A DNA stretch of 63,504 nt, filler included, from Craspedostauros australis (Eukaryota), in assembly GCA_030167865.1 (NCBI GenBank). It is 15 parts of 15 records of this genome, joined end to end, with 100 filler letters (N's around TTAATTAATTAA, not from the genome) between each part and the next. Parts side by side here need not be neighbours in the genome. Positions count along the whole stretch, not along the records: positions 46,250 to 50,101 come from JALAGF010003213.1; 14 more parts are not named here. The stretch is one strand, 5' to 3'. The notes beneath the pieces are model-generated. The model saw only the letters and a list, made by a program, of their open reading frames with translations, was not told the DNA's origin and ran no database searches. A program made the translations under genes and the position numbers. Positions 2,571 to 56,165 of the stretch are shown piece after piece; position 1 is the first letter of the stretch, and every line of letters begins with the position of its first letter.

Positions 2571-2900
2571 GAGCAAAATCCTCGAGGACGAGTATGGCAA
2601 CACGCTCAGATTGAGCCTGAGCAAGTGCTTCGGGCCCTCCACATTTCCTCTCTCATTCTCTCTCGCTCCTCATACTCAAAGAAAGGCACGATGAACATAA
2701 GTACTTAGCGAAGTGAATTGGTTGATCTTTACATTGAGAAAGTGGTTGCCGCCGTCCTTTGGAAGTCTTCAGCTTCGAGGATCCTTATTTGCTACTGACG
2801 ATTCGACAGTGTTGTGCTAGTTCTCAACTCGATGCGGCTGTACAAGTAGAGACACCAGATGAGCGTTGTACCAGGTAGAAAGTGCGTCCCACCTTCCATC

Positions 2901-4470: not shown

Positions 4471-6270
4471 ATGCCGAAGCCAGCCTTCAAGTGAGTGCCT
4501 CCACCTATCGACGCCCATGCCGACAGGACCGCACTACGATGTGCTCCATACGCGTGGTGTAATTGACCAGAACGAGACAGAATCCGTTTACTCGTCTGGA
4601 ACACACTCAGAATCCAAGACAGTGCGACAGAGGGATGTCCATCGTATGACCTTGCCCACTTTGCCAATGCATCAGGAAAGCAATGTGCACGGGAGTCATC
4701 AATCTGAGCGTGCGAGGGAGGGAGGGTGATCCAGCAAGCAGAACGCATTCAATATCTCACAGCAGATTCTCCTTCGTTCCACTCTATCTCTGCCGCGTTT
4801 CATTTCTCCACACGCGCCAATGGAACCGTATCCGCGACCAAACCAAACGACGCCGCCATCATCGTCGTCATCTGATTACCACCACGACTACATCCAACGC
4901 TGCGCAGCCCCGTCCGTGATCTCATCAGCGGCGTCATCATGGCGGCGACGTCGGTACCGCAATTGATTGCGTACGCAGAAACAGTCGGATATGCTGGATA
5001 CCGTGGACTCGCCACGGCTGGGCCACCTCTGTTCGCTTGGGGCCTCGCAACAGGAAGTCCATACATGAATTCTGGCGTCACTTCCATGACAGCGCTGATG
5101 GCCAAGTCGGATTTGGATGGCGAAGCCTATGTGCAGGAACACGGCGAAGAGGCATACGTGCGATTGGTGGCAGCGTATTCTCTCTACGTCGGGATTGCAT
5201 CCATCGTGCTGGCGGTTGTTGGATTTGGCAAGCTGGCGCAGGCTGTTCCGACGCCCGTCAAGAAGGGCTTCAAGTGGGGATGCTCCTTCGGTGTGCTCGT
5301 TTCGGCTTTGCCCAATGGAATCTTCGCGGGTGGATCCAAGCAATTGAAAAGCCTCGTGGCGGACTCCAATGAGTTCCGCCAGTTTGTCACCAGGCTCAAG
5401 CAGGACGCACCGGCCGCCAAGAGCGCCGTCAATGTCACCAACTTCTTCTTTGCCGTTTCGCATCCGTGGATGTGGTCCCTGATACCGGCCGCCATGTTCC
5501 TCGCCGGGACTTGGTTCGTCATGGAAGGCAAGAAAGCGCTTCCCAAGTTCCTGCCGCCGGGTACGGAGGTGATTCTGGTCACCGGAATCGCAACATGGTA
5601 CAGCATGAACTATGAGTACGAAGGGGGCATCGTTGGTGAGATCCCCACGCTGGATGCGGACTCTGGTATTCAGGTGATGGGATTCAGCCTCCCAATCGAA
5701 TTGCTGGACGTGCAGAGCATCCTGGATGCGCCGTTGGCAGAGCAGTTCGGAGGGTACCCGGTCATGCTGATTTCTGCCACCCTCTTCGCAGCGGTCAACT
5801 TCCTCAGCATCATGGGCATCGCCTCCGGATTCGAGGCCGAGGACGGCATCACGTGGAGCGCACCACGCGAACTGATCTCGCAGGGTGTTTCGTGCGGCGT
5901 TGCCGCCTTGGTGGGATCCGCGCCAGTGTCCGGCAGCATGAGCCGTTCCTTGGTTTCCAGGATGACAGGCACCACGTCCCAACTCGCCTGCATGCTGACG
6001 GCGATGCTATGGATCCTCGCGCTTCCATACATGTCCATCATGACGCCGACGCCCAAGGCTGCGCTTTCCGCCATCATCGTGAGCGCCGTCATCAAGAGCA
6101 TCATGATCCCCAAGGACCTCATGAAGCTCACAGGCATTGATTTCGTTGTTGGCTGGGGATCCGCAATCATCACAGCGGTGACTAGCCCGACCATTGGGTT
6201 CGGAGTTGGTCTGCTCCTCTACATCGTCACGTATCCAGCTCAACCGCCCAAGAAGGCGAAGGTTGCCTAG
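4471..6270 (+). CDS. SulP/SLC26-family anion (sulfate/bicarbonate) transporter, no STAS domain; 2 exons
   Basis: Exons 4471-4490 and 4908-6270, intron GTGAGT...GCGCAG; spliced N-terminus MPKPAFNPVRDLISGVIMAATSVPQLIAYA; motifs ELISQG and SGSMSRS; many TM helices. Confidence 0.85.
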
Positions 6271-7015
6271 AGAGAGAGAGTACAAACATATAATATAATA
6301 AATACCAATAAGACCCCGCAGAAGCAATCACGCTTTTTCTTGGTTGCGTACGAGCTGCCAGCAGCGTCAATGACAGTTGGCAGCGCCCACCTCGTTGTCA
6401 TGGATCCTTACCCATCAAAAACTGTCACGAGGATAGGTGCTCTACTCAATCGCGACTGGTTCATCCATCTTCGTTCGCTCTCTTGACCTCCAATGTAGCT
6501 GTGGCTTGGATGATCCAACGTGATCATGGTCAGCATCGTGGCTGCAGGAAACAAGACGAACCGTGTGACAAAAATGAACCAGTCGTGACAACGAGGCTTG
6601 TGCCGTGGTGCCACACGTGGATAGATCACAATCGACAGTTTTCGTGGCCAAAACCAATCAACCAACGTCTGCGCCTTCCTGCGAGAACAGGGGAAGGCGA
6701 AGATCTCAGGCGGAATTGTCCATTCTCCAGTCACAAATCATCACCATTTCGCATCGTGGATACGTATGGCAACACACTCTAATCATACTCATGCTGCTCT
6801 GAGACACAACCAAATGCACGGCATGACGGAACAACCAACACAGTTCATCGATCGATGGGTACACTTGCTCATAAACTCAATCGATTGACCAGATAACCAA
6901 CCAATCAGTCAGGCTCATACATTGATTTCAGACGCGAAACACACCAACACAACCGCCCAGCAGCCAACCGCCGACTGTCAAGCCAACACGCACATTTGTA
7001 ACGACAACATCAACG

Positions 7016-8002
7016 ATGGTGGCCCATCTCTTCATGAACTCATCTGCAGCACAAGATCTAGATCGTACCATCATGCCCAGGATGGATCCTTCACCGCTCA
7101 GCAAGGCAGCGAGCAAAGCGTCCGGCAACACCGTCGCGTCTCGTTTCATCGGACGCCCGCGCCCAAAATCCGACTCCTTGGCCGACAAATCATCCACCCG
7201 ATTGCCACCCCATCAAACACATTCACAGCCGCTTGGCATCCTCCCACCATCGTTCATGACCGGGCGATTGATGTTCGAGGATGGATCCGTCAACAACGAT
7301 AACCGTGACGACAATGATGGCTGTGATGACTGTGGTTGCCGCGATGGCCTTGATGACGCGGAAGAGTACGACAACGATGACATGATTTCGGTCACATCGA
7401 CCCAGACCAGCGCATCCGACGCCACCGTGACCATCGCCAATATCAGCAACCGCGGCAGACGCAGCGTCTCGGTGGACTTCGATGTTTCTATGTCCACCCT
7501 CAAGGGGCCATCGACGCCGACGTCAGCAGTGACATCCGTCAGCAAATCGGTCTCGTTCTCCACAGTGTCGGTCCGCACCCATGAAGTCGTGCATGGCGAG
7601 CACCTCAAGCCAGAGTACCCCGTTGTGCTTGGGCGAGGCGTCGTTGGCGACGATTCCACCTATGCTAGCATCGAACACTATGAGCTTCGCTGCCGCAAGC
7701 AGGCCACGGAGCAGCGCAGATCCCAAAAGATGTCGCCCGCATCCGTAGAGGAACGCAGACAGCGGCTGCTTGCAGTGGGGTACTCGGACCTGGAGCTCTT
7801 TTTGTTGGAGGGACGGCGTCAAGAATTGAGAAAGAAGCAAGGGGCAGTGCAGGAGGTCACCTGGCCCGGCGTCTCTCCGACGATCCCGCAAGATGCCGAA
7901 GTACCAATACTCGTATCGAGTGCGACATTCGCAAGCCAGGAGAAGGAGAAGCGACGATCGGTGCGTGCATTCTTCCGTCCACTCAGAAAGATGCTGCAGT
8001 AA
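7016..8002 (+). CDS. Hypothetical protein of a common diatom family
   Basis: 328-aa ORF with KSVSFSTVSVRTHEVVHGEH...PVVLG...SIEHYE...EERRQRLLAVGYS, a motif pattern I recognise from diatom hypotheticals. Confidence 0.7.
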   Translation: MVAHLFMNSSAAQDLDRTIMPRMDPSPLSKAASKASGNTVASRFIGRPRPKSDSLADKSSTRLPPHQTHSQPLGILPPSFMTGRLMFEDGSVNNDNRDDNDGCDDCGCRDGLDDAEEYDNDDMISVTSTQTSASDATVTIANISNRGRRSVSVDFDVSMSTLKGPSTPTSAVTSVSKSVSFSTVSVRTHEVVHGEHLKPEYPVVLGRGVVGDDSTYASIEHYELRCRKQATEQRRSQKMSPASVEERRQRLLAVGYSDLELFLLEGRRQELRKKQGAVQEVTWPGVSPTIPQDAEVPILVSSATFASQEKEKRRSVRAFFRPLRKMLQ

Positions 8003-8729
8003 GCTGTGCGACATTCGCAAACCAAGGAGGAAGGAGAGGGGAAGCAACAATCGGTCTTTGTGTGTGTATACCATCAACCAAGAAGTGATCGTGTGACATA
8101 TGACATGCCTATCATTCAAGGAATGATGCAGGGATTGGCTCCTGCAAGTATTACAGGCAGCAGTAGCAACAATACCAACAATCGCAAGAAATAAAAATAA
8201 TCTGCATTTTATAATCATAGCCCACCTTCGGTGCTTATGTCATGAATGCTGCCTGACTCCGGGGTGTCAACATTGGATTGATGTTGGTACTCTCCGCTGC
8301 TCTACACTCATGTCTATGTCCATGAACCTCGTGTGTTGCCCCTATCGTAGAACTAGCGTGCAAATGAAGGCTATCCAACACGAGTCCTGTGTGGAGGATA
8401 CGAATCACGAAATGGTTGAAACTGGAAGATACTCGTGAGGACTTTTTTGGCGCGTTGCTTGTTGATGTCACTTTCGTTGGCACCGGCAAGAGGTCGCTGA
8501 TGGCAGTGATTGGCAAGTGTTCCCATCGGAACAGTCGATCCGCTGCTGCCTCTGCGTGTGGATCTTCGACTCTTCCGCTCGATGTGTCCCGAAGCCGCCA
8601 TTGCGAAACATCTGTCGACACAATTCACGACACATCACAAGACCACAGGAGCAGGAGACCAAAGATCCTATCGTTGTGAACGCCCGAAGTTTGCCGCATC
8701 TACGCACTCCACCATCAGCTGATCGCATC

Positions 8730-9635
8730 ATGAAATCCCTTCCCGCCATCTCCAGTGCCACCGTCGGTTTACTGGCTGCGGTGTTGCTGAACACCGATCA
8801 GGTCGCGGCAGTCCCAACTCCTTCCTCCAACATCCCCTCCGTTGGAGCGTATCAGCACCAGCACCATGCCAAGTCGTTGGCTGGCAGTCTTCGCACGGAC
8901 GCCAACGGCAGCGCTGGCTTGGATTCGGTGCTTGCGCTGCGCGGAGGTAGCACAGGCGATGAATTCGTCGGAGCTGCCTACGACTGGTGCATCAACTTGG
9001 GTGCGCCGGCAGCTCTCGTGGCAGGAGCCGTCGTTGCGACTCTGTACGAAAATGTCCGCGGTGGAGAACTGGAGGTGAAGAAGTCAGATTCGAACTACGT
9101 GAGATTTGCCAAGAAGATGACGACCATCTTACTGGTGACGGCGTTTGGAATGCAGATCGTTTCCATCTTTGTGACCACCGTCACTGGAACTATGCTGCTG
9201 AGCAGAGGACCGCTTGAGACCAAGGCCAACTCTCCGTTGGAGTACCTCCGTGAGCACTTCGAGTTTGAGTACCTCACCTCCCGCCTCAGCTTCTTGCAGG
9301 GATTGCTCAATTGGCTTGCCGCTGTCGCTGTGGAGCACACGATCCCGAGAAAGGGCGAAGGTAAGGCCGCTGTCAAGATGAACCAGTTCCTGGCAAGTTC
9401 GTTGACCACCCTCATCGTCGTGCTGGTGTCATTCTACAACGCCCACATGACCTTCTACGACAACTACTTCGAGATGGTCACGCGTTGGTTCCAGGTGACG
9501 TCGAAGCGCTTCCTCCTTCAGTGGCCACCACGCCCGTTGGCCTTGATCTTCGCCCCCTCCATTGTGTTCTCTGCGTTTCTGTTCGTCCAGGCGCTCAGAA
9601 ACGAGGAGAGGGATGAGGACTACACCGAGAGCTGA
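8730..9635 (+). CDS. Hypothetical membrane protein with signal peptide and LRGG motif
   Basis: In-frame ATG at 8730 (MKSLPAISSATVGLLAAVLL); LALRGG motif; about 5 hydrophobic helices. Confidence 0.8.
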   Translation: MKSLPAISSATVGLLAAVLLNTDQVAAVPTPSSNIPSVGAYQHQHHAKSLAGSLRTDANGSAGLDSVLALRGGSTGDEFVGAAYDWCINLGAPAALVAGAVVATLYENVRGGELEVKKSDSNYVRFAKKMTTILLVTAFGMQIVSIFVTTVTGTMLLSRGPLETKANSPLEYLREHFEFEYLTSRLSFLQGLLNWLAAVAVEHTIPRKGEGKAAVKMNQFLASSLTTLIVVLVSFYNAHMTFYDNYFEMVTRWFQVTSKRFLLQWPPRPLALIFAPSIVFSAFLFVQALRNEERDEDYTES

Positions 9636-10305
9636 ACGCGACAACCATGCCGTCGCGATCACCGCATGGTCGAAAAGGGAAGATGACTACGAGACGATAC
9701 GGTGCGAGACCATACGGTGTGACCTGACACGACACGGCATGAGACGAGCGAAGATGATCCAGCCGCACGGCAAGATCAATTTGATCATCGTGAGGAGCGG
9801 CAATGGTCCAGCGAAAACAATGTGTCAGCAGATCATAGGAGCACTGATTTCCATATGGCGCAAAGGTACGAGTAGCGTACGAGAATAACATACGTGTAAC
9901 GCGGCAGTACTCTAGAATAGTAGTAATACGTTTCAACATCTTCGGCCTCATGTTCTGTCACAAGCTGCTGTTTGCCTCCGGTTGTGCCATTGTTGATTTC
10001 GTGGATAATCTGCACTTCCATACCCCACCCCACCCTCCGTCGTCTTGCCTTGTCTGTGGCCTGCTCTCTGGAGTGATGCAGTCGTCGCCCCTCGCAGGCA
10101 TCAATGAGCATGCTTCCATTGTAGACACTTTTCGTTCGCAGAACTTAGGGAGGCGATTGTGGGGCATCGCAGGAGCACTGGTACTTTATTCGGGCGGTCT
10201 TGGCTGTCTTCGATTCGTTCTGCACCAACGTGCAATGCTGGAGAGCACAAGGAGTGGAGTGGAGCAGAGTGCTTGCGGAGTAGCGTCAAGCCGACTGGCA
10301 TGTTC

Positions 10306-15988: not shown

Positions 15989-18152
15989 TCAGGGTTCTTT
16001 CGGTGGCAACGACTCCACAACACTCTCCATGAAGAGCTCGCTCGTCGTATTCGTATTCGCACTTGCACTCGCAGATGGGTCATTCTTCCTGGTAGTCTCC
16101 TGATGCGTGGCGGCTCCATCTCCATCGTCACCTTCCTCTCCAGCCACGGTTTCCTCGCTTCCCTCCTTAGGTACCTGGCTCGGCGGCACGTCTGCTTCGT
16201 GGAATCCCTCCCAGGGAACAAGCAGCTCCATGAAGTCGTGCGCCACGGCCGTTTTAACGCCATCTTCGGCCACTTCTTCCGCAACCTTGCGCAAATCCAC
16301 GACCTGCCCTGATGAATCAGCCTTGCTGCTCACATGGGTGAGGACGAGAACCTGAGCATTGACTTCTGCTGCTACTTCACCCGCCATACTTGCCGTGGAA
16401 TGGCCCCTCTGCGACGTCAGGTGTGTCATGCATGTCAGCGTATCGAAGCGATGATGCGGCATCATGTAAACATGTGTGTGAGATCCCGAAATTGACATCC
16501 TGCATACGGTATGGCCGTTCGCTGGGGCTGCGGCTCGTCATGCTACTGCGCATTCGATCATGGATCTGCGCGAATCTACCACACTAGTATCACAATCAGC
16601 TATGGAATAATGCCTACGTTTCAAACCAGCACGGGCGTAACGATCGTTTCGGAATACCCTGTGATATCGCGTCATTTGAGTCCGTACGGTACGCATCCGT
16701 ATCAGCTCATAGAGCATCATTTCATTTTGAGCAATAGCGTTCGCCCCGAAGATACATTTGAGACAGCCAAACGCCCACCAGAATAGTAAAACTTACCTCG
16801 ACAAGATCTTTGTCCTCCTCCAACAAGGTGGCCTCGTGCACCAACACGTCGCTGTTCTGTGCCAACGTCTTCATTGCATCCGTCCATTTGGCATTATCTC
16901 CCACGACAGTAATCTTCCGGCTATACTTCGTCTGTGGCAGCAAAACTTGATCGGGCATGACTTCGACTTCACCATCATCAGTGTACACCGAATACCCGTG
17001 CTTGAGGAGCTCGTACTTCTTTCCTGCGGGTGACACCCCCAATGCCTTGGCCTTGGCGGGGTCGATGTTGCGTGCTGGTTCTTCCTCCTGGACCGTAAAA
17101 CCGAACGTCGTCACGTGGGGCACATGGTACATCTCCGCAGCCTGGATGCGGGTGCGTTTCTTGTTTTCCATCAAGGAGCGTTTGCTGGCGTCCAGGAGAT
17201 CGGAGCGCTTGATGGGTTCGTAGTCTTCAATCGTCCAAACACCGTCCACGGGTTTGATGAATTTGCGATGGATATTCCTGTGGCTGAATTCTCTGTAGTT
17301 GGTGTGGAATGGGCTTCGGTGATTGTGTCTCCGCCGCGGCCCCATTTGGCTGCCGATGAGCTCATAGACTTCGATTGTCAGGCGGTTCGGTCTCGAACAG
17401 GAGAGCATGAGATTCGCCACGATAAAGTTGTACAGCCCCACAGGCCCGTATATTTTGACAACGTGATCCTGGGCTGTTTTGCTTTCGTCTCCCGAGGTTT
17501 GGAGACCAAGGAGGAAGCCTGGGAGGCCAAAGATGTGATCACCGTGCATGTGGGTGATGAATATTTGATGTATCTGGCTGGTGCGCGACCGAGTGAACGT
17601 GCACTGACGCTGCACGCCCTCTCCGACGTCAAATAGCAAGGCTCTGCCGCCTAGCCTCAGCAAGGTGGCGGATGGTGCTCTCTTCCGAGTTGGAATGCCC
17701 GCGCTGGTGCCGAGGAAGCAAATGCTCATGCCCGTGTCTGTGGCAATGCCCGCTCCTGTTTCGGCATTTCTGCCGGACAGAGAACAACGGATGTGCTGAT
17801 TCAGGTCTGGATGGATGGATTCGGGATCATTCGCTTTGTAAATGCTTGCGGCTACGCCTGGGTCGTTGTCCGAGTCATCGCCATCGGCCTCACTGGCTGC
17901 GTCGTCTTCTGTGGCAGTAGCGGCTGTGGACATGAATTGCGGACGTTGCGTGTGGGTGGGTTGTGTGCTGAAATGATGAGAATTGCTGCCACGATGTCCA
18001 GCGGCGGAGTTCAGGCCACTTCCAATGTACCTCCTTGGCTGCAAGCCTGCACCAACATGTGGGGGCACATTTGCCACAGAGAGAGATGGCAGAACGAGTC
18101 GCTGCAATTGGCGCCATCCTGCGATCTTTGCTCCCGATTTTGACGCGATCAT
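15989..18152 (-). CDS. rnz: Ribonuclease Z, short form (metallo-beta-lactamase), organelle-targeted; 2 exons
   Basis: Exons 18152-16797 and 16408-15989; FLGTSAGIPT, LFDVGEG, THMHGDH, VLVHEAT, GHST, LVLTHVS; start codon uncertain. Confidence 0.9.
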
Positions 18153-18713
18153 TGTTGTTGTTGGCCACGATTCGTCGCAACAAATACAATGTGATGGGAA
18201 ACGATCCACTGCCTCTTGGAATGCTCCGCTCGATGGTAGTTTGATGTGATGTGCGTACGACTACGATGCACGTGGATTGTCGTGCGCCTTGCCCCTGGAA
18301 CCGATGTCCTCTTGTAGCCTGCGAGTGTGAGGCTCGACGATCTTGACTTGGCAGAGCGTTCGCAGCACCCAAACAAACCATTGGACCCAAACACACACCG
18401 TTGTTGTTTTGATGTCATGTTCGTGAATCAGCCTTCGTTCGTGATCACATCCAATTTTCAGTCATGCATGAAACCAACAAAACAGATCACGCAAGCACAG
18501 GGAGGAAAACTAGATTCCAATTGTTGGTTAGGGGGTGGCCGAGTAATTAGGATACATACCATCATGCCAAAGCGTAAGACGGTACTCTCCGAGTGTATTG
18601 TGCATGTATAGATGCATGTATAGATTCAGGTGCTCATGTTGTCGCAATTCATGTTGATGGGCTGCGTTTTGGAGAGGAAGTTGGTACAGAAATATGCATC
18701 CAGGTTTAAGCTC

Positions 18714-30545: not shown

Positions 30546-32691
30546 CGTGTCGGAGGACCCGCGTAACCCTTCGGTTGCGGTCACTCCCTTGGAGCGCTTG
30601 ATCACTCCAGGCTTGCTGATGCCTGCCAACTGCTTCCATTGGCCATGATTGGTGCCTGTGGTACCCACCACTGTCTCAAACATGTCATCGCACTTGACGT
30701 GAAATTGCGGCGACACCAGTCCTGTCCTTGGGTTGAGGATGAGCGCCACCGATCTTGCGTGACGAGGAGAGAGTCCAAGGTAGATCCCGATCCTTGCCTT
30801 CGACATCCATTTTGGCTGTGATTGGCCATTGGCGAGTCGAGGGTTCAGGACGTACGTTGGGCATCCGAACGAATGAAAATGCTTCAGCTGGGGCTTGATT
30901 GCGGACCCAGAGAATCGTTCAATAGGTGTGATGTGATTGATCACTGGATTCGGGGTTGCGTTCATCACCTCATTTGCCATGCGCAGAGCGTACGGCCACA
31001 GTGAAATGGATGCGGCCTCCTTCCACCTGATGTGCATGTGCAGCAGCATTGTCCGAGCTGCCTCCTGCAGATCCCTGATGCGTTTCTCCGCCACTCCGTT
31101 TTGGAAGTGGGCGTATGCGGCGCAAAAGGTGATGGTCTGGCCGGAGCGATCGACATGCGAGAGGAATTTGTTCTCTGCGAATCGACCATTGTCGGCGTGA
31201 TAGTGCCGAATCGTCACTCCGTAGGTCTTGGCGTATGCCTCGAATGCTTGTTTGGCATGCAGGGTTTCTTCGGCGTTGGTGCTCTTCTGAAGGTGCACGT
31301 AGCTGAATCGACTGTGATGGTCAGTGAAAATGGTGGCTGCGCGGTACCGCTGGGTAGTCAGCCTGCCTTTGATCTGTCCGATGAACCCCTGTGTTGGTGA
31401 CTCCATCTGGTCCACCGACACACAGTCTCCAGGCCGATTGATTGGCACGAGTTTGCTCACTTGCTGATTGCCTCCCTTGGTCCGCCATGGCCGTCTGGTT
31501 GCCTTTCCATACTCACATGATGCGCATGCGGGCAGTTGGCAGTCTCGGAACTTCGCAGGGATCTCTCCCTTGGAAGCCATGGTCCTCATCTTGTTGAAGG
31601 ATACATGCCCAAGCTTGTAGTGCAGTCGGAGCATGTCGGCTGTTGGAGTAGAGCTGTACTCCGAGGTAGCATCGATGGGTGCTCTGTAGGGCACATCCCT
31701 GAAGTCGATCTGCGTAGGCTCCTTGCTGAGTTGGTCCTCCGCTCCGCTGGTGGTGATTGCTTGCTCACTCTGGTTGATGCTCCCGTCATCATCGTCCATT
31801 ACCACTGACTCCTCGTCGTCGCTGACCAGATTGGCTGCGTCCATTGGTTCGGTAGGAGTGATTTCCTGCACTGAATTTGTCAAGCAGTACTTCCTGAATC
31901 CATTGTAACCCGATGACGATCTGATCATGCCGATGTTGGATGACGTGAGTGGTATGGATCGTCGGTGCTTGCGACGGTCCCAAAAGATCTCCATTCTGTT
32001 GCCGAGGGTGGTACATCCGGTTCCCTCAAGATCCTTGCTGCATTGCGCCCAGTGTTGTGGGCAGAGCAGTCGGAATGGAAGGCTGGGCTCATAGATCACT
32101 TTGTCGAGCTCGATGATGTGCCGGTTTCCGCGGTCGTCCTCGATCTTCCATCTTACCTTTCCTTGCAGGTTCACCTTCCGACTCCCAACTCCCTTCACGA
32201 CCTTGTCGATTTTCGTAGGTTCTCCGATGAAGTCATCCTTGCTGTTGGTGAATGACGTGGATGCACAGTTGTCAACCGCCATCTGAAACGAGTCTGAATC
32301 GAACCGGGCGAGCGGCATTGCGAATGTGTCGTCTGTCTCCGTGTCTGCGGCTGCCCAGAGATGTCGCATTGTTCTTGTGCGCCATCCGGACTTTCGTCCA
32401 ATCCTGGGTGGCCTGATTCCGTTGCCGTGCGCGTAGTATCGCCGGCACTTGTGGTGGTTTGGTCGCCATCTGGTGTGTTTGCGTGGGTGTCCTTGGATTA
32501 GCGCGATGCGCCAAGCTGTCCACGTGACCAGAGCAACCACCACCATAGCCATTCCTGACTCCTCATCTCCGTGCACGAAGGCGGCAACGCAGATGGCTGT
32601 CAGTAACGCCATGATGAGTGGCCTGCAGAGGGTGAGCAACTGTGCCCACACCCTCCGGCCGATCATTCAGTACTCCTCTTCGGCCACATGT
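30546..32691 (-). mobile_element. Copia (CoDi-type) pol fragment: protease, GAG-pre-integrase and integrase
   Basis: MAVDNCAS protease; LHYKLGH...CASC zinc finger; DDE motifs VSVDQ, HADNG, QNGVAE; IGIYLG.SP.HA. Confidence 0.95.
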
Positions 32692-34320: not shown

Positions 34321-35107
34321 TGTCGAGATGTACATGTGAGTATACGTCAAGATGTACGTGTATATGTGCATCGTTCACCCGCTATTCTCTCATACGCACT
34401 TGGACGGTATAACTACACTCGTGTCGATAGTATATTGTAATTCGTCAGAATTACAGGGGAAATGGAACACACGAAAAGGGGCAAGATATCTGGAGGAAAT
34501 TTTGCAAATAACGATTTCTGGGAGAATCAGAAGATCGTCCGTCCATGCATCAATGGTACCAAGAGAATCTCGAAGGTACTTCCCAACTAAACCTCAGATG
34601 ACGATATCATCTGACAGGCTGCTGCATCACCAATGGAACATGACATCTGGAGAGCAGAAGGACGCCTACTGACNNNNNNNNNNNNNNNNNNNNNNNNNNN
34701 NNNNNNNNNTGTCTCCAAGTCAGAGTAGGAGGCGAAGATACGATGACCCATGAAGATCATGGATACTGAAGGTGAACTTCAAATGGTAAGTACTCATGGA
34801 GTAGGAGCCAGTACTGAACGAATGGAGTGTCGAATGCGGAGTACGCATCGAACACGGAGTATCGTGTAACACGAGTACACGATGTAGAGAGAGAGAGTAC
34901 AGAGAGGAGCGAGAGAGCATCTTGCGTACCGACTCATAGTCGGAGACCGAATCTACGAAACAGATTGAAGTGCCAAGAGCATCGGGCAAGAGAACGGGCG
35001 TACACCGAGAGTATCGGAGTGCCAACGTAATGAAATAGCAAACAGACGACTATTAACCAACACCATCTTCCACGATCGTAGGTTACCGTGAGCGGAACTT
35101 GCCAACA
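34321..35107 (+). mobile_element. 5' LTR of a Copia element (TG...CA)
   Basis: Start TGTCGAG is fixed by an inverted copy ending at 38544; end CTTGCCAACA is fixed by a related inverted LTR starting at 51839. Confidence 0.8.
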
Positions 35108-35189
35108 CGTTTATAAACGATAGATCAGGGCGAGCCCGCGGATCGGATCATGTGAGGAAGACGAACATCATTCAAGAGCAGTAGGCTGA

Positions 35190-38016
35190 ATGAGCGAGGA
35201 AGAGGAATTGAAAGACATCCCTCTGTCCAATCCAGCTATCAAGCAAGAAGAAGGTGCGAGTGAGACTCCACCACGAGAAGAGAAGGAAGTAGCAGCGGCT
35301 ACTGTCCTATCAGGCGCAGAGGCAAGCGCAATCGACAAGACCGAAGAAGAACGGTCTGCAAGACTACAACGCAAGGAGAAGAGGATTCTCAAGGCGGCCA
35401 AACAAGAGGAGACTGGTGTGACGGAGAGCATTCGCACAGCCAAACAGAGTGGGAAAAGTGAGACACCACCAGGAGGAGAATTTGTGAGCAAATCAGTCCT
35501 CGTGAAACAACAAGAGAAATTCGAAAAAGTGACAACACAGAAACAGACGGAAATCAAGGGCGCGAGCGCACCAACCACGAAACAACGAATCAACATGGCG
35601 ACATCAGCCAACATGAACAAGCGACGTATCAAGGCGCCGATGTTCAGCGGTGAACAGGAAGACTACAGCGCATGGGAGTCCCAAGCGAAGACATACGCTC
35701 GTGCACAGAAGACGAGAGATGTGATGTTGGGCAAGACCAAGGTCCCAACAGTGAGTGAGATCGCGGCAGCCGCCGACGACGCGAAGGAAGCGATGGAAGA
35801 AATCTACGAGCTGGGATGCGACTGCTTCAGCGATCTGATCCTCATGATGGATGCAGAGAAAGGAAAAGGCAAGCAGGCCATCCAGTACATCAACCAATGC
35901 GTCTCCAACGACTACCCCGAAGGAGATCCACACGCAGCGTGGAACGTTCTTGCGGAGAAGTTCTGACCATCCGATGCAGCAACAAAGATCAAACTCAAGC
36001 GACAGTTCAATAACAAGAAGATGAAGAGAGACTCGGACCCTGACATCTACATCACGCGACTCGAGGGTCTACGCTCGCGTCTCCACGATGTCAAGTACGA
36101 GATCACAGACAAGGAGATGATCATGCAAATCCTCAGCACGGTGAGCAGCGAATACAGAACCCACATCGTGAACTTCCAACACCAACTCACGTTTAATCCG
36201 GAACTGATTACCATCAACGCGATCAGAGGAGTACTCCGCACAGCATACGCCACTCATCAAGGAGGCAAGGCGTACGTCGACGACTTCCAAGACAGTAACA
36301 CGAAGAGCAACGACACCAGCTTCACAAGCACCGGTAACTTCAAGGGCACCTGTCACAACTGTGGTGTGTATGGTCACAGATCCGCCGATTGCCCAGAACG
36401 CAAGAAATCGAACAACAAGAAAACAACAACAACAACAACAACAAGATGAACGGAAAGCGCAACAACAACCGCAACAAAGGAAACGGCTTCAACGGGAAAT
36501 GCAACTACTGTGGCATCTTCGGACACCGCGAGGCGGAGTGCCGAAAGAAGAAGTTCAACGAGAACAAGAAGGCCAACGGACAAGCCAACACGACAACGGA
36601 AGGACACGACAAGAGCGGGCACGAGATGGTACTCTCGGCAAAGGACACGCCGCTCTGCATGTTGGTGTCCGACGACTACATCGAAGACTCCTTCTTCGAT
36701 AACTTCGAATACGTCGGAAGTGACGACGAAGTGCAGGATGATGAGATCATCCCGGAGTGGCTCAGCGAGGAGCCAATCATCCACGAGGTGGATCCAAGAC
36801 GCGAAGTGAGCTACGAATGCTGCTTCAACGCGCACGACCTGATCGGTCCATACGGCGACGGAGCCGAGATGGGCAGCGAGGCCAACGATAGCGACATCGA
36901 AGAGGCCATGAGTAAAGAGGCCGACGACGAGATCAACGAGAATGATAGAGGCCAAGACGAAACGAACGGCGGCGCGGCGCCGCCTCCTCCAGCGGCGGGG
37001 AACAACAGATCGGGCATCTTTGATGAAGATGACAGCAACGAAACCGAAGACCATCCAGACGACAGCTTCAACCCAAACGAGCGTGTCGTCTACCCAGGGA
37101 ACATTGACTTCCCACCGATTGAGAATCCCAACAACTCAAACTACCTCCATCGTCATGACACCATTCCGTATGGAACGGAAACAGCATTGATAATCCAGAA
37201 GCAACTCATCTTCGATGCTGTAATGGAAGCAGGAGTGAAACTGTTCCCAGGAGTCGCACAAGGAGTGCTCAGATCAATATGGGTGAACATGATGGGATCC
37301 ATCCTATCCGAGAACTTCAGATCAATCGAAGAGATTCTCGCCAATTCGGTCATCATCAATCGCATACTGGAAGCAGCCGAGACAGAGACAATCCCAGAGA
37401 CGGATCTACATTACATCCTTGGAGGATGTATGCGCGTACTCTTACGCGAACGACCACGCGTCAACCCATACGATCCAGTCACCAGAACTCATCGAAACAG
37501 CACAGTTCCATCGGACTATGCACAACTACCCGATGACATGGATGATGAGGATCACCATAATCCATACAGCGAAGATGGAGTTCATGAAGATGACGACGAC
37601 GACAGCTTCGACGATGAGATAGCTGCAGCAGCTGTGGAGCAGCTCCACGAGCTGAGCACCAAGTACAAGGACAAGGACAAAGTCAACAAGGACACCTGGC
37701 TTGCCGACAGTGGAGCTTTGTGTCACATCGTCAATTCGGACGCCGCCCTCTTCAACGTGTGGCACATCAAATCCTTTGTCCAAGTGGGAGACAGCACGAA
37801 GCTGGACTCTCCCAAGATGGGATCCATTCGCTTGAAGGTCAAGCAATGAGACAACACTGGCCACATCATCCAGCTCGACGATGTGAAGTACAAACCAAAA
37901 ATGGTGGTGAACCTTTTCTCAACAAATAAGGCTCTGGGACACGCGGCAAAATGTCGAGTATGACCCCAAAACCTCATGACTTAAATACGAACGACAGTTT
38001 CAGTGATGTTTGATAT
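35190..38016 (+). pseudogene. Degenerate Copia gag-protease polyprotein
   Basis: FSGEQEDYSAW; two CCHC knuckles (CHNCGVYGHRSADC, CNYCGIFGHREAEC); protease WLADSGA; TGA stops at 35964 and 37847; frameshift near 36420. Confidence 0.9.
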
Positions 38017-42034: not shown

Positions 42035-43084
42035 GGGGTGATCAGGGTCCATCAGCATCGTTCGTCGCGAAGTGTTCTTCAGGTATCCGAAGATGTGGTA
42101 AGCCTGCTCGAGATGTCCAACCCGTGGCATGGCGAGGTGAGATGACAGCAGTGACACTTCCAGCAAGATGTCGACTCTGCCAATCTCAATGGCCCATCGC
42201 AGCACTCCGATCAGCTCCTGGAACCGCCGCAATCCATCTGCTTTGAGTTCTGGCGTCTCATCTTCTGCTGGATGGTAGCTGCAAGTGAATGGTGTCCGGC
42301 ATCCTGATGGTAGTCGTAGTCCTTGCTTGTCCAGCTTCTCCTCGACGTTCTCAATGGCTGCCTTGCAGTATTTCTCCGATGACACGCTCCAACACCGCGT
42401 GCCATGTTCATTGCTCTTCTGACTGAGTGATGCACCAAGATACATGTCTGGCGGCTCAACCTTGTCCCCTTTCAATTTGAAGACAGAAGCAACNCCATCG
42501 ATGACCTCTCTGGGCTTATGGCTCATCGCCATCACGTCGTCAACATAGCAAAGCACGATCTCGTAGTATTCGAAACCGTTGGGTTTGGTAGCCGCTCGTA
42601 ACCATACGTCTGGATCAGCCTTCGATGATCGGAATGAGCTGTCATGAAGTACACCTGCCATTTTGGCCCGAAATGCTGCTCCGGAGGACTTCAACCCGTA
42701 CAGAGCTTTGCGCACGAGCATGATCTGTCCTTCCTCAGCAGCAAACTCNGGTCCCGCCCTGGTCCAGACCTTCTCTCGGCAGTCTGCTGTCAGGTATGCA
42801 TTCTGGATGTCACATGCCAGCACCTCCAGGTCATTCATCGCGGCGATGGTCAGCGCGATCCGCACTGAGTCCCTGGATACCACCGACGAATATGTGATGG
42901 ATGATGGTGTTGTGGTCTTGTGTCCCCCAGCCACGAGCCTTGCCTTCCGTCGGAAGTTCTCGCCCAGCTTCACATCGAATATCAAATGACACTCGATCTG
43001 CTGGTATCCCTTTGGTAGCTTCGACTCGTTGCCTTCGAATGCCTCGAATGCTGGTCGAACGTTCTTCATCTCCTTCAGGATCGA
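42035..43084 (-). mobile_element. Copia (CoDi-type) reverse transcriptase fragment
   Basis: RKARLVAGGH, DIQNAYL, KALYGLKSSG, YVDD, EIGRVDI; open throughout. Confidence 0.96.
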
Positions 43085-43184
43085 NNNNNNNNNNNNNNNN
43101 NNNNNNNNNNNNNNNNNNNNNNNNNNNNTTAATTAATTAANNNNNNNNNNNNNNNNNNNNNNNNNNNNNNNNNNNNNNNNNNNN

Positions 43185-44657
43185 ACTCACCAACCTACTG
43201 CACTACCACGGATTGATCACCCTTCGGCGTACAGTAAGTTACCCTCGTTTTCTATATCGTTCTATCAGATTAACAGTCGCACTCGCTCCACACCTGTGTT
43301 GATCGAGTGAATATCCACTTCCTCTGCTTCAAGCATCCTCAGCTACCCCACGTGACGACGTGACACTCTCTGCCCAGTTCTCTGTGCAGACACACTCTTC
43401 TGTTCGGACTCCACCGTTCAGCTCCACTCGGCTTCGGCCCTCGCGCGCTNNNNNNNNNNNNNNNNNNNNNNNNNNNNNNNNNNNNNNNNNNNNNNNNNNN
43501 NNNNNNNNNNNNNNNNNNNNNNNNNNNNNNNNNNNNNNCTCGTCACAGACGATTGATCAAGTGTGCTTTCCTGCTCTATTTCTTGAATCGTACAACAACA
43601 TCGCCCACGGCGATCTACGCGAGAAACCAGAAATAACAAATCAAACAAACACTCCGCCAACTACAACAAAACAAACACACAACAAACAATCTACATCACA
43701 TCACATCAACCATCACCCATCACCAAACATCACCCATCACCGAACGCTTTCATCATGGCTACCAACACCAACGTCACCGACATCAACGAGTACACCATAC
43801 TCAACCACGTCTTGTCTGTCATCGGCATTCAGGCCCATTCTTGGCAACGTCGCGCTCTCAACGAGGCCGGCATCGCCANNNNNNNNNNNNNNNNNNNNNN
43901 NNNNNNNNNNNNNNNNNNNNNNNNNNNNNNNNNNNACGACGACGACAACACATTCCGTCCCATGAATGTGCTTGTTGTCAACAAGATCCTCGCATTGGTA
44001 CGCTGGATCAATCTCCAACCACGATTGACTCCCGATGAATGGATGAGTGTCGACATGTACGACATCTCGCACCCATCTGTCATCGGGGTCGCGGGTCCCC
44101 GGACCCCGGCCAGCTACCGTCCCCGAGGAGGTGTCAGCATCATTCCTCCCAGTACTCGCACTCGCCGTACTGTGGATGACGACGAGGACATTGAATCTGT
44201 GTCCCCTCCTGATCGGACCAGATTTGCTACTCCGGTGACCGAACCTTCGGCACGTGTCGCAACAGCGGAAACTCCAATCGCTGGTGCTCCTGTGCCAAGT
44301 GTTTCATTCTCTCCNTCGAGCGCTCTCCCAGAGTCGTTCACCAAGGAGTTCAGCCGTGGTGTCAAGCGTGAGGCCCTCGCATTCCCCACNCTGAAGGANG
44401 ACAAGCGTTTCCTTTCGTTCCGGCGCCAATTCGAAGCGATCGCGTATACTCATGGACTTGAGTATCACATCGATCCTTCGTGGGAACCGGGTCCATCGGA
44501 CATGTTGTTCTACAACATGCAGAACAGGTACCTCTACTCTGTTCTGAGCCTCCATGTCAAGACTTCGCGTGGTGACCAGCTCCTTCGCAAGCACCAAGCA
44601 AGCAAGGACGGTCGAGCTGTCTATCAGAGTCTCATTGAGACTTACACCAATGGTGTC
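43185..44657 (+). mobile_element. CoDi-like element 5' end: LTR 3' end (to 43267), PBS, leader and gag start (ATG 43755)
   Basis: gag is homologous to the 46925 ORF (ILNHVL..IGI, KILAL.RW, F.RG.KR); PBS identical to 46696. Confidence 0.88.
43268..43281 (+). promoter_or_regulatory. Primer-binding site GATTAACAGTCGCA (complement of a tRNA-Asn anticodon arm)
   Basis: Directly follows the LTR-terminal CA; identical 14-mer at 46696. Confidence 0.8.
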
Positions 44658-44757
44658 NNNNNNNNNNNNNNNNNNNNNNNNNNNNNNNNNNNNNNNNNNN
44701 NTTAATTAATTAANNNNNNNNNNNNNNNNNNNNNNNNNNNNNNNNNNNNNNNNNNNN

Positions 44758-45203
44758 TATTAGCATTATGCTTTATTCCGCACAGCTCTCTCTCGTGTTC
44801 CAGCTTAGTTGTGCGTATGAACCGTATCCTGAACCAACACGGACCATGAAATGGTCACATTACGAGCGAATAGCTCGACGAGAAACGAAAATGAAGATGT
44901 ACCAAGGTACTGGGTACCAGAGACAAGGTACCACGATACAAGAACGATACTGTGAGATAGCTACTGACCCAAACAAGTTGAACTTGAAGAGATCTAAGGA
45001 TCCCATCCGATGCTTGCAGAACAGAGGAATGCAAGAGCAGAGGCATGGACATGAACAGAGGTCAGAGATTAAGCTCACAACTCTTAAGTTTGTAATAACA
45101 TTTGAGTTCCCAACAGACTACCAGTGAACGCCACCTTCTCGACCTGATCAATCGCAGAAGGACGCGTTCTTCCTAAGTTACAACCAATTCCTCAAGTCTA
45201 ACA
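44758..45203 (+). mobile_element. 3' or solo LTR, 446 bp, apparently identical to 46250-46695
   Basis: Matches the second copy through TCTAACA, then runs into host ODC coding sequence rather than the PBS. Confidence 0.92.
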
Positions 45204-46047
45204 TCTGCTGAGCACTGCCAAGGAATGCGGCTTGCCCGTCGTCGGTGTTGCCTTCCATGTTGGTTCCAACTGCCGCACTGCATCCACTTACAAGACGGCA
45301 CTGAACGATGCCCGCGAAATCTTCGATATGGGCAAGAACGAGTTCGGCTTCGATATGAACCTCTTGGACATCGGCGGTGGCTTCCCTGGCGACACGATCT
45401 CCCCTTGGAATCCGGCCAACCTCTCCNAGGTCCCCAATGAGGATCATCCCAAGGAATTGGAGGAAGATGAAGAGGCGCTNGAGAGGGCGATGTCCCTCAT
45501 GTCGTTCCCCGGCATGGCCGATCAGATCTCGCCCCTCATCGACGAGATCTTCCCTGAGGACAGCGTCCAAGTCATGGGCGAGCCAGGACGATACCTGGTG
45601 TCCGCCTGCTCTGCTGTCGTCGTTTCTGTCACCAGCGTCCGCAGCAACCTTGCCAACAAAGACAATGCCGAGGGCTCAGACAAGACAGCTGTTGCTGCCC
45701 GCGACGACTTCGCCTACTACCTCAACGAAGGCGTGTATGGTCCATTCAACAATCTAATTTGGGACGACACCCTCCACGTGAGACCACGGTTGTTGCGCAG
45801 CAACCCCATCAAGTCTACTAATCACAACGAAGACGTTCTCTACCCCTCCACCATCTTCGGCCCCACCTGCGATGCTGGCGATGTTGTCAACCGGTCGGTC
45901 CTCCTGCCGCAGCTGGAGATCGGCGACTGCCTCTACTACAAGAACCTGGGAGCCTACACTAGCAGCTCGGCGTGCACCTTCAATGGATTCAGTCTGGCCA
46001 AGAAGTACTACACCTGCAGCGTTTTGCCCAAGATGTTGGAGGAGTAG
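45204..46047 (+). pseudogene. ODC: Ornithine decarboxylase (group IV PLP decarboxylase), C-terminal half, interrupted by an LTR
   Basis: [41 protein letters not shown]; the N-terminal PLP-lysine region is replaced by the LTR. Confidence 0.9.
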
Positions 46048-46249
46048 ATTCCAATCAGCGCAAGGGCGGATACAAGAGCAGAGCATGTTTGCGATTGCTG
46101 CGGCGCGGCAATCAGTGGGGATGTCGATGGCATCAAGAGGCGTGGAAACNNNNNNNNNNNNNNNNNNNNNNNNNNNNNNNNNNNNNNNNNNNNTTAATTA
46201 ATTAANNNNNNNNNNNNNNNNNNNNNNNNNNNNNNNNNNNNNNNNNNNN

Positions 46250-46695
46250 TATTAGCATTATGCTTTATTCCGCACAGCTCTCTCTCGTGTTCCAGCTTAG
46301 TTGTGCGTATGAACCGTATCCTGAACCAACACGGACCATGAAATGGTCACATTACGAGCGAATAGCTCGACGAGAAACGAAAATGAAGATGTACCAAGGT
46401 ACTGGGTACCAGAGACAAGGTACCACGATACAAGAACGATACTGTGAGATAGCTACTGACCCAAACAAGTTGAACTTGAAGAGATCTAAGGATCCCATCC
46501 GATGCTTGCAGAACAGAGGAATGCAAGAGCAGAGGCATGGACATGAACAGAGGTCAGAGATTAAGCTCACAACTCTTAAGTTTGTAATAACATTTGAGTT
46601 CCCAACAGACTACCAGTGAACGCCACCTTCTCGACCTGATCAATCGCAGAAGGACGCGTTCTTCCTAAGTTACAACCAATTCCTCAAGTCTAACA
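46250..46695 (+). mobile_element. 5' LTR of a CoDi-like Copia element
   Basis: Followed by PBS, leader and gag-pol; ends TATTAG...CTAACA form an imperfect inverted repeat. Confidence 0.92.
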
Positions 46696-46709
46696 GATTA
46701 ACAGTCGCA
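46696..46709 (+). promoter_or_regulatory. Primer-binding site GATTAACAGTCGCA
   Basis: Begins exactly where identity between the two LTR copies ends. Confidence 0.85.
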
Positions 46710-46924
46710 ATACCCTACGTCCCTAGCTGACTGAGTGAACGAACAACCCCATATCAAGACAGCTGCATCCCAGCTGACCGAACGAGCATCACGTGACGAC
46801 GTGATAGCACCTGAACCGCAATTGCATTGAACGAGTCCGCAACAGCCTGTTGCCGACCAACTGAACCCTCATCACCCGAGCGCATCCGCTGTGAAGAGAC
46901 AGAACGAACCTGATCATCTCCAAG

Positions 46925-49603
46925 ATGACATCCACGAACCCACTGGACATCCTCAACCACGCCCTCAAGGCGGTTGGGATCAAGGGAGACTCCGATGAGC
47001 GTCGAGTCATCACCTCATCTGGCATAGAGGACATCGACGACCTCACGCTGCTGACGAAGGAGGACCTGGATGGCCTCCACATCACCATCTCCAAGGAGGG
47101 TAGCGAACCCTATGACTGCAAGCTTGCTGCATTGCATGTGCGCAAGATCCTTGCATTGGAGCGCTGGTACGAGAACCAAGAAGGCATGGAAGCCAGCACC
47201 TGGCTTGAGCTGAACGCAGCTCGCCTTCAGACCTTCATGAAGAAGGAGAAGAAGGCAGAACCAAAGACAACCGAAGAAGAGGTACCCACACCTGACGTGG
47301 TCCTCTCGTCTACCCCGACCTCGGATGATGTCGCTCTATTCAAGCGTGGTACCAAGCGCAACCTGAGTGACTACCCAACCCTGAAGAACGACGAGCAGTT
47401 CCTGCAGTTCGATCGACGTCTCCGAGCCACCGCAGCTGCTCATGGAATCAAGAACGCCGTCGATCCGGAGTACCTACCAGCGAGTGAAGAGCTTGCACTG
47501 TTCGAAGAGCAACGTACGTTCCTGTACTATGTTCTCTCGAACTCCCTTCGCACCATGAAGAGCCGCAACTGCCTCTTGCCGTACGCCGACAAGGAGGATG
47601 GACATGGCTTCTACATGATGTTGAAGGAGGAGTACGCCTCTGGCGTAGCGGCAACCAACAAGGCCCAGATGATCCAAGCCGAGATCAGGAACCTGAAGCT
47701 CAACAACACCTGGAACAGCAGCCGTGAGACATTTGTCAATAGCTGGTTGTCGAAGGTGAACGACCTGGAGGAGATCCAAGACAGCCCAGTCGCTGATGAC
47801 TGGAAGATGCAATGGTTGCGTGAAGCCATCGCTCCAGACAACGATCTCTGCCGTGCTCTCGATGACGCTGACGCTCTCCAAACCAACATGAGCCTCACCA
47901 CAGGCAAGATGGACTTCTCTCTGGACTTCGATGCGTTCCTCGGTATTGTGCGTCGTTCTGCACAACGCAACGACCTGCGCAACCCGCGAAACAAGACGAA
48001 GCGCAGGATCAACAACACCAACAAGGACAGCGAGAAAGGCGGAGACAACGCCAACAAGAACAAGACCGGAACCCACCGCATCCCGGATGACGAATGGAAG
48101 AAGATGACCTGGCCTCAGAAGAAAGTGCACATGGAGGTGCGTGGTCAATGGGACCCTTCCAAGAACAAGAGCAAGAACAAGTCCCAGCGTCAGGCCAACA
48201 AGACCGCTGGCACTGACAAGACCCCATCAGGATCCTCTTCTGGGGAGACCGGTACCAAGACAAGCACTGACCCTGGTGACGCTATCAAGCGTATGCTAGC
48301 GAACACCCAAACAAGCAAGAGTGAAGAGATCACAGTTGATGGAAAGGTCTATCGTGCTGTGAACATCACTGACGTTCGCTACAGCTTCAACAAGGCAACC
48401 ACCAACATGTCTGGTTCCCTGATTGACAGTGGAGCAAACGGAGGTCTCGCTGGAGACGATGTTGTGGTCCTGGACAGGACCGGACACACAGCGGATATCA
48501 ACGGGATTGGTGATACCACGATTGTCAACCTCGAAATCGGCACCGTGGCTGGCCTCGTCATGTCAACTGAAGGACCCATCATCGCGAAGTTCTACCAGTA
48601 TGCCATTCATGGGAAAGGTAAGACAATCCATTCCTCCAACCAACTAGGAGCGTTTGGGTTGGACGTGAACGAGCGACCAAGCAGCCTTCCAGGTGGTCGT
48701 CAATCCATCATTGTGCCAGATGGGCACATCATTCCTCTTGCGATCCGACAAGGTCTGTCGTATATGGACATGCGTCCACCCACGATCCAAGAGATGAAAT
48801 CCTATCCTCACGTTGACTTCACGGCGGATGAGGTTTGGGACCCATCCGCACTCGATCAAGAAACCCGGGCGGCAGATAGTTCCCAGGATGAGTTTTCTGA
48901 GGAAACTATCGCACCTAACGACGATGTTCCAATTTCTGAGACCCGGATTTTCGAAGAAACCCGGATTTTCGAGAAAACCCGGAAACTAGACGAAGCGGTG
49001 AAACCGTTTTCCATCCAGCGTACACCAATCGACTACGAGGCGCTCCGCCCACGTTTCGGTTGGATCCCCGCTCTACGCATCAGAGACACACTCCGTTGTA
49101 CCTCCCAATGGTACCGTTCCTCCGAGCGCTTTGCGATGCGTAAGCATTTCAAGACCAGATTCCCGGCAGCCAACGTCAACCGTCTCCATGAGACCGTGGC
49201 GATGGACACGCTCTTTTCCGATACACCAGCACACGATGATGGTGTTCCAGGACATGGTGGGTGCACCATGATTCAGATCTACGTTGCTGTGGACTCTCGC
49301 TTCACCGCTGGATTCCCGATGGCATCCGAGAAGCAGGTCTCCAGCACCTTTCAGGAGTTCATCCGGCGCCATGGAGCTCCGGATCTGTTGATGTCAGACA
49401 ATGCGAAGGTAGAGATCGGATTCAAGATGCAAGACATCCTCCGGCAATATGCTATTGCCGACCACCAAAGTGAACCCGAGCATCAACACCAGAACGCCGC
49501 CGAGAGACGCATCCAGGACATCAAGAGGATGACCAACGGCGTCATGGACCGAACTGGAACCCCTGCTTGTTTCTGGTTGATCTGCACGATGTATGTCATC
49601 GTC
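46925..49603 (+). mobile_element. CoDi-like gag-protease-integrase ORF, truncated within integrase
   Basis: Protease LIDSGANGG; integrase VAMDT, MSDNA, QNAAERRIQDIK; homology stops after FWLICTMYVI. Confidence 0.95.
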
Positions 49604-50101
49604 TGTCAGGAATCGAGGGTACGCTTTTACCAAGATACCCATGATTGCCGCACCTCCCAATAACATCATCCGTGACTCACATCCGTGACTCAAACCCGAG
49701 ACTCATCACATACGTGACTCGACCCGTGACTCAAGACAAACGTGACTGATCTCAGTCGTAACAAGACAACAAGCCTGTCCTCCTCTAACAAGAAGAACCA
49801 TGACAACGCAACAGATCAAACGACGACGTCATGGGAGAAACATCGATGACCAACAGGTCTGTGATCACCCCATCAAGAGAAACGAAGCATGCGCCCTCTT
49901 GCGGACAAGAAAAGCCGCAGGTTTGGACCATCAGAAAGATTCAGAAGTGTCGCGGGTTTCAAGACGAAACCTGTGACAAGATGGATGCACGACTGTGGAC
50001 TCCTGCCGCAAGAATGCAGGGCGAAACGAAATACACGATGAAGTGCATGATGAGATGCATGATGAAATGTACATGAAGTACATGCTGCATGACATGATGA
50101 A
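49604..50101 (+). mobile_element. Probable nested LTR starting TGTCAGG
   Basis: Abrupt switch from integrase to non-coding sequence at a TG; internal short tandem repeats; orientation not certain. Confidence 0.5.
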
Positions 50102-55854: not shown

Positions 55855-56165
55855 TGGCACCACACCACAACACACAAAACAAATCGCAACACAACTCGAC
55901 GCAAGCCAACACAACATCGCACAACATCACAGAGCATCACAGAGCATCGCACAGCATCCCACAACGCCATGCCACATCACACAGTATCGCAAAACATCAC
56001 ACAACATCGCACAACCTCACACAACCTCACACACCATCGCACACAACGCAAGGCAACTCAACACACCATCACACAACATCACAGACGAGGCAACGCAACT
56101 CCACACACCATCACTCACCATCGTACAGCCATACAGCATCACAGCGTCACACAACACCACGCGCT
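55855..56165. repeat. CA-rich low-complexity pentamer repeats (CACAA/CATCA)
   Basis: Seen directly. Confidence 0.8.

Follow-up and report, generated by a model that had tools for sequence, protein, structure and literature searches.

Predicted priming by a 5' half of tRNA-Asn in a diatom clade of Ty1/Copia retrotransposons

Which primer would start reverse transcription in two retrotransposons of Craspedostauros australis that carry the same 14 bases directly behind their LTRs? Both elements lie in a stretch of 63,504 nucleotides (the window), and a preliminary description of this DNA had proposed that the 14-mer, GATTAACAGTCGCA, is paired by a 5' half of tRNA-Asn. Our analysis agrees with this proposal in its main point: the 14-mer is very probably the minus-strand primer binding site (PBS) of a large diatom Ty1/Copia clade, which would be primed by a 5' tRNA-Asn fragment. 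The features of both elements are collected in Table 1.

Table 1: Positions in the window of the two elements, their putative primer binding regions and the neighbouring features.
Feature	Position	Strand	Remarks
3' end of the 5' LTR of element A	43185..43267	+	ends ...TATCA; C3211 starts inside the LTR
PBS of element A	43268..43281	+	complementary to tRNA-Asn(GUU) nt 27-40
Putative PBS extension, element A	43282..43310	+	can pair with tRNA nt 1-26; GTGA at 43307-43310 faces nt 1-4
gag of element A	43755..44657	+	internal N gap; cut by contig end
Second family-B LTR copy	44758..45203	+	446/446 identical to 46250-46695; right-hand LTR; no PBS behind
Ornithine decarboxylase gene, 3' half	45204..46047	+	Pfam PF02784, PF00278
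5' LTR of element B, TATTAG...CTAACA	46250..46695	+	446 nt; solo copies with TSDs
PBS of element B	46696..46709	+	complementary to tRNA-Asn(GUU) nt 27-40; abuts LTR
Putative PBS extension, element B	46710..46738	+	ACTGAG faces nt 11-16; GTGA at 46735-46738 faces nt 1-4
gag-protease-integrase ORF of element B	46925..49600	+	broken off inside integrase on contig
Assembly contig spacers, non-biological	43085-43184, 44658-44757, 46150..46249	.	14 such in the window

The 14-mer at the LTR junction and the host tRNA

The window consists of contigs joined by 14 N-flanked spacers. Element A is on contig C3211 and element B on contig C3213, so their adjacency in the window is no sign of genomic neighbourhood. 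The 14-mer was found exactly at the two PBS positions, which were the sole matches in the window when up to two mismatches were allowed, the chance mean for such matches being 0.42. It had been described as standing behind an LTR ending in CA in both elements, and each CA proved to be a true LTR end. The terminal 20-mer of the LTR of element B (family B) has 20 genomic copies; the 14-mer follows in 5 of these, unrelated sequence in 13 and the end of a contig in 2. For the family of element A (family A), 28 of the 30 copies examined, out of 47 found, diverge directly after the CA and 2 continue into the 14-mer. This divergence after the CA places the 14-mer exactly at the PBS position, with zero gap. 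The LTR of family B, 446-447 nt long, starts with TA and ends with CA, and thus departs from the TG...CA termini that are a common, non-universal Copia trait. Of 5 solo-type family-B LTRs that could be seen together with both flanks, 4 have target site duplications (TSDs) of 5 bp, and so does the insertion described below in an ornithine decarboxylase (ODC) gene.

All 73 exact copies of the 14-mer in the genome were inspected; 6 are in tRNA-Asn(GUU) genes and 67 are LTR/PBS junctions, preceded by CA in 53 cases and by TA in 14. The reversed pattern, searched as a control in the same genome, gave 0 matches. The six tRNA genes are identical and fold into a normal cloverleaf, in which the complement of the motif is nt 27-40, running from the 5' stem strand of the anticodon arm through the loop to the second base of the 3' stem strand. 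The resemblance of the reverse complement to a tRNA-Asn anticodon arm, which had been read from the 14-mer, is therefore exact in the host tRNA-Asn(GUU) (14/14), and the prediction that this tRNA would contain it held in all six genes. Two organellar-looking tRNA-Asn genes carry different stems, and near-identical tRNA-Asn sequences are present elsewhere (assembled contigs, 4 public runs). The 65 junctions with enough downstream DNA belong to 9 Copia families with unlike LTRs and leaders, and the 14-mer is the only sequence invariant across them. A few copies (L304, L343 and L347) have a point-changed site, as expected from the decay of old copies. A PBS of the usual kind for the 3' end of tRNA-Asn, the only 3' end scored, was absent (best match 7-8/12), and the LTR is not followed by TGG.

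Elements that carry the site and their distribution

The tandem element L031 (contig C4353) has a single ORF of 1833 aa with the order GAG-PR-INT-RT-RH, in which DSG, an integrase core (rve, weak, E 0.06), RVT_2 (E 1e-22) and RNase H motifs appear in order. By this predicted pol order, PR-INT-RT-RH, and the RVT_2-type RT, the elements with the Asn site are classed as Ty1/Copia. The polypurine tract (PPT) GGGGAG is ahead of the 3' LTR in L031, L087 and L060. The ORF of element B is 51% identical to that of L031 over 914 aa, covering gag, PR and INT. The gag of element A is 24% identical to the L031 gag (E 1e-18 to 1e-20), and the RT of another member of family A, L063 (C5950), is 75% identical to that of L031. 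Between the two window elements the gag ORFs are 25-36% identical, in short stretches only, which agrees with their description as diverged. At about 49604-50101 the similarity of the element-B ORF is lost inside the integrase and the next sequence starts with TGTCAG, perhaps a nested LTR.

The site is also kept in reduced elements. The minus strand of L060 (694-1355) holds a TRIM-like element with LTRs of about 206 nt and an interior of about 250 nt, in which the Asn PBS and the PPT are conserved, and decayed families retain the Asn PBS as well; the non-autonomous derivatives belong to the same PBS-sharing clade. In L061 and L080, from a 10-copy family with the LTR end TATTA, there are low-complexity open frames of 1185-1656 aa with mere scraps of integrase or RNase H and an intact PBS, and this group may be a large family of non-autonomous elements. 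Tandem elements joined head to tail, with one LTR in common, were observed in the same genome in L031 (its positions 1-10000, on C4353; 100% identical over 3463 nt) and in L195/L196 on a metagenome contig. Between the integrase and the RT of L031 (3781-4128) a chromodomain-like stretch was noted by eye, as described for CoDi-A, and the search of this stretch for a chromodomain gave no Pfam hit and no significant PDB hit. An abundant gag-related family of the same genome, represented by about 10 of the inspected loci, has a long leader, and its LTR junction lies beyond the contigs.

It was also possible to see a second copy of the family-B LTR in the window, joined to the 3' half of an ODC gene, with the 5-bp TSD at 45204-45208. 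The 5' half of this gene, with an identical LTR, is on C2792 (L089), and uninterrupted ODC copies, 97-98% identical, exist (L361-L363 are among these loci). The LTR copies of C2792, C3212 and C3213 match each other at 446/446 positions, so this very recent ODC insertion may have the element at 46250 as its body. Elsewhere in the window, pieces of other Copia lineages (34321-37849, 30546-32666 and 42035-43084) show a zinc-knuckle gag, a gag-pre-integrase and an RT 37% identical to the Asn clade, and tandem arrays of 20-nt and 10-nt units occupy 527-762 and 55879-56137. An ORF with a metallo-beta-lactamase fold and a tRNase Z N-terminal hit (PF13691) is found at 16725-18260, on a contig other than those of the elements, and no link with them is implied.

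Outside this genome, the metagenome scan gave at least 118 stretches with the motif; many of these loci are too short to judge and some are chance matches in bacteria. Related pol or gag was located downstream in 17 of the 131 motif matches listed, a set that joins metagenome and viral matches and has one contig twice. None of the 11 viral matches had related pol or gag or a retroelement ORF, and they were used as the chance control; scanning the viral contigs with the gag protein detected no relative. At least four full-length metagenome elements, on four contigs, have the same PBS and an RT 48-54% identical to that of L031. The motif is then conserved across the family, as had been anticipated, being kept in the 9 families of the genome and in the full-length metagenome relatives. 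The RT-RH region shares 58% identity with one protein cluster that includes Phaeodactylum tricornutum sequences, and 58-62% with clusters that include Mayamaea and Fragilaria sequences; one matching cluster is labelled uncultured bacterium, probably by a binning error. This grouping of the RT with diatom Copia proteins (Phaeodactylum, Mayamaea, Fragilaria) is the one by which elements are assigned to CoDi.

Covariation with other tRNAs and pairing beyond the site

A survey of post-LTR sites for covariation with the host tRNAs had been suggested together with the tRNA-Asn proposal, and within this one genome sites of two further types were found to match their own tRNAs. With one base of the motif relaxed, 105 genomic matches were obtained; among the 100 matches listed, the sites that are not of the Asn type read GATTAAGAGTCG. 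In 34 of 34 examined non-Asn copies the site is GATTAAGAGTCGTG, which is complementary to nt 27-40 of the tRNA-Lys(CUU) of the host, and each of the three bases that differ between the Lys and Asn sites follows its tRNA. The Lys-site Copia lineage has an RT about 37% identical to that of the Asn clade and forms a separate clade with support 100/100, in a tree with midpoint root only and long branches. In this lineage (L311-L342, e.g. on C4418 and C6568) gag and pol are in different frames and at least 34 junctions were observed; L328 and L336, of the Lys type, have two PBSs 250-340 nt apart and look like TRIM-like mini elements. The motif for initiator tRNA-Met (iMet) has 10 matches, namely 3 genes for this tRNA, 6 LTR-like junctions, all in one family (14/14), and 1 partial match (12/14). 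Six copies at the iMet-site loci (L353, L354 and L356-L360) show an LTR-like end, TTA, and in the stretches of this family inspected there was no RT and no similarity to three gag queries.

The iMet site has the register of the Asn and Lys sites and ends at the 39th nucleotide of its tRNA, which we take to be position 40, this tRNA lacking position 17. The idea that the Asn site lies in the register of initiator-Met half-tRNA priming is thus supported by an iMet-type site in the same genome. The proposed direction, a switch from Met, is not supported, as the order of Met, Lys and Asn is unrootable with present data. The three tRNAs, tRNA-Asn, tRNA-Lys(CUU) and initiator tRNA-Met, share U36-A37-A38-Y39-C40, so the PBS always begins with G(A/G)TTA. 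The agreement of each PBS with its own tRNA at the positions that differ is the strongest sequence evidence that the predicted pairing is real.

Taking into account that a 5' fragment would offer more than nt 27-40, we calculated the pairing of the 30 nt behind the PBS with nt 1-26 of tRNA-Asn. The extension of element A (family L004) gave -19.8 kcal/mol, with p 0.004 against mononucleotide shuffles, p 0.02 against dinucleotide shuffles and rank 1 of 36 tRNA 5' parts; that of element B (family L018) gave -18.6 kcal/mol, with p 0.008 and, for dinucleotide shuffles, 0.057. The pairing beats mononucleotide shuffles in 7 of the 9 families (p 0.004-0.02) and is better than that of nearly all downstream windows; with dinucleotide shuffles p was below 0.05 in 5 of 9 families and 0.057-0.063 in 2 more. 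The signal is absent in 2 of the 9. The tetranucleotide GTGA, complement of nt 1-4, occurs at offset 25-30 in 6 of 9 families, and within offsets 11-32 in 8 of 11 clusters against a background of 11%; the families are related by descent, so these counts are not independent. Among the metagenome clusters listed, chance matches included, the pairing exceeds that of the cluster's own downstream windows in 52 of 72 (Wilcoxon p 5e-6), and 9 of 72 have GTGA against a background of 6%; 4 of 10 viral chance clusters pair better than the downstream control.

The extension is not specific for Asn. The host tRNA-Asn ranks from 1 to 25 of the 36 tRNA 5' parts by energy, a wide range because the D arms resemble each other. 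No isoacceptor-specific covariation was detected in mean energy, the own tRNA being favoured in just 3 of 9 Asn and 4 of 6 Lys families, and the metagenome clusters listed showed no enrichment for a helix that continues without gaps behind nt 27 (2.39 vs 2.18 of 6). In element B the same region can alternatively fold back on the PBS through a downstream GACUG, and the extension signal may partly reflect this. With these results, it seems somewhat probable that the downstream 30 nt or so extend the pairing to nt 1-26.

Proposed priming, alternatives and known systems

In the mechanism that we propose, the anticodon stem of tRNA-Asn would be cut behind nt 40, in the way described for initiator tRNA-Met in copia and Ty5. 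Nucleotides 27-40 of the 5' fragment would anneal to the PBS, nt 1-26 would probably add looser pairing with the next 30 bases or so of the element RNA, and the RT would extend the 3' end of the fragment straight into the LTR, giving minus strong-stop DNA. By analogy with the published model for Ty5, RNase P is a candidate for the cut (PMC5371799). Cutting and annealing could also take place in the opposite order, the intact tRNA-Asn being unfolded and annealed first; a nuclease of the host or of the element would then cut it at nt 40, inside the particle or close to it. This variant of our explanation, not exclusive of the main claim, is possible, and we hold it with some reserve. The extended pairing could open both strands of the D stem and the 5' acceptor strand, both orders look the same in the sequence, and a cut at nt 40 falls within the stem, but the published diatom small-RNA data describe stress halves as arising from cuts in the loop (PMC4247016). 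Pairing to nt 1-4, however, would be easier once the 3' half is gone, and the model given for Ty5 is a cut by host RNase P (PMC5371799).

The other readings concern the match itself or its purpose. Chance or an assembly artefact might be invoked, considering that the window is made of concatenated contigs and that large collections contain a 16-mer by chance (12 gut-bacterial matches in one cluster, the 11 viral matches), but the 67 junctions are on independent contigs and always at an LTR end, and the reversed control gave nothing; together with the mapping of the LTR ends they refute this reading, whose probability is practically nil. It is very improbable that the 14-mer is a cis element with another role (hairpin, self-priming, packaging or dimer signal), like the self-priming site of fungal GalEa CHS or Tf1, and that the tRNA match is a relic. 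The GACUG of family B, with a similar motif in several families, can fold back on the PBS, yet this fold-back does not stand out from shuffles (z -0.05 and -0.62), the LTR is without a self-priming complement to the 14-mer (best 8-9/14), and the exact match to the host tRNA has covarying Lys and iMet counterparts. The preliminary description had also linked tRNA-Asn to nitrogen status, so that its use would act as a sensor and starvation-induced cleavage would supply the primer. Loop cuts made by stress RNases do not reach nt 40, and the 3' phosphate that they usually leave is non-extendable. The CoDi element Blackbeard is reported to be induced about 92-fold by nitrogen limitation (PMC2806351), and long tRNA fragments to rise in Phaeodactylum under iron starvation (PMC4247016); against this, the Blackbeard induction is one of transcripts as reported there, and the term 'Asn' is absent from the main text of PMC4247016. 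The Lys and iMet sites of the same genome and the elements of rust fungi have the same register, so the amino acid seems irrelevant. No support for the link was found, three tRNAs for different amino acids serving alike, and we consider it quite unlikely.

Priming by a 5' tRNA-Asn fragment admits a broader reading, which we offer tentatively: diatom Copia lineages might draw on a shared pool of tRNAs cut at nt 40, the Asn clade gripping the whole 40-nt fragment. If true, it would imply a general host cut on tRNAs with U36-A37, presumably those of the t6A modification class, a change of primer would take 1-3 base changes, the Asn clade would hold the fragment down to nt 1 by a conserved downstream box, and diatoms would lend themselves to a search for the nuclease behind half-tRNA primers. 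The presence of three half-tRNA primers in one genome is in any case a built-in comparison for nuclease identity and tRNA choice. The 14 bases are also a tag for locating 5' ends and TRIM derivatives, and PBS finders that seek tRNA 3' ends would miss such elements.

A half-molecule of initiator tRNA-Met is given as the primer of copia, Ty5, Osser, Bryco and part of Gymco-II (PMC10886601, PMC6317226, PMC5371799). As in copia and Ty5, the elements described here are of the Copia superfamily, and their PBS, which follows the 5' LTR directly, is complementary to the anticodon arm as far as nt 40. They differ in that the classical primer is initiator tRNA-Met and was shown by experiment, whereas here it would be the elongator tRNA-Asn(GUU) of a diatom host, as predicted from sequence. 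For CoDi, families without TG/CA ends are likewise described (Maumus 2009, PMC2806351). A PBS of CoDi elements is not described in the main texts of PMC2806351, PMC2774666 (Llorens 2009) and PMC7017206, and the passages of PMC3601003 consulted show none; no report of a diatom Copia PBS was met in the literature searched, which lies outside Repbase, GyDB, subscription journals and the supplement of PMC2806351.

The preliminary supposition that half tRNA-Asn priming is undescribed must be withdrawn. In rust fungi, Helenus and its partner Copia elements are reported to have anticodon-loop PBSs for Tyr, Ile, iMet and Asn-GTT (Kojima 2024, PMC10886601); there tRNA-Asn-GTT was 'chosen once', in a text that names this primer once as Asp and once as Asn-GTT. 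A non-Met anticodon-loop PBS, repeated primer switching, a 5-bp TSD and non-autonomous derivatives that keep the PBS are common to both systems. The host kingdom is different, and Helenus LTRs are described as holding tRNA-like sequence, of which ARAGORN, weak for degenerate tRNA-like sequence, detected none in the window. Halves of Ile, Lys, Arg and Tyr tRNAs are in print as well. FunCo1, a Copia element of ascomycetes, is described with an internal tRNA-Lys PBS (PMC5445492), Lys instead of Asn and in a fungal lineage. Lineages with 1/2 tRNA-Met and 1/2 tRNA-Ile are listed by Neumann 2019 (PMC6317226), plant Bianca being one of the latter and sharing a non-Met internal-fragment PBS with the elements studied here. 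The same applies to Candida albicans elements, reviewed as having internal, partly extensive PBSs for tRNA-Arg(UCU) (PMC4139406), and the 'extensive' homology of some resembles the extension considered above; in Candida and Bianca both tRNAs and hosts are other. The mechanism, although uncommon, the switching to non-Met tRNAs and one Asn case are then already known, and apparently the clade-wide use in diatom Copia is unreported. Our results would extend half-tRNA priming, with no new mechanism, to a major and widespread clade of diatom retrotransposons, and they contribute the covariation of three primers within one genome and a probable extended pairing.
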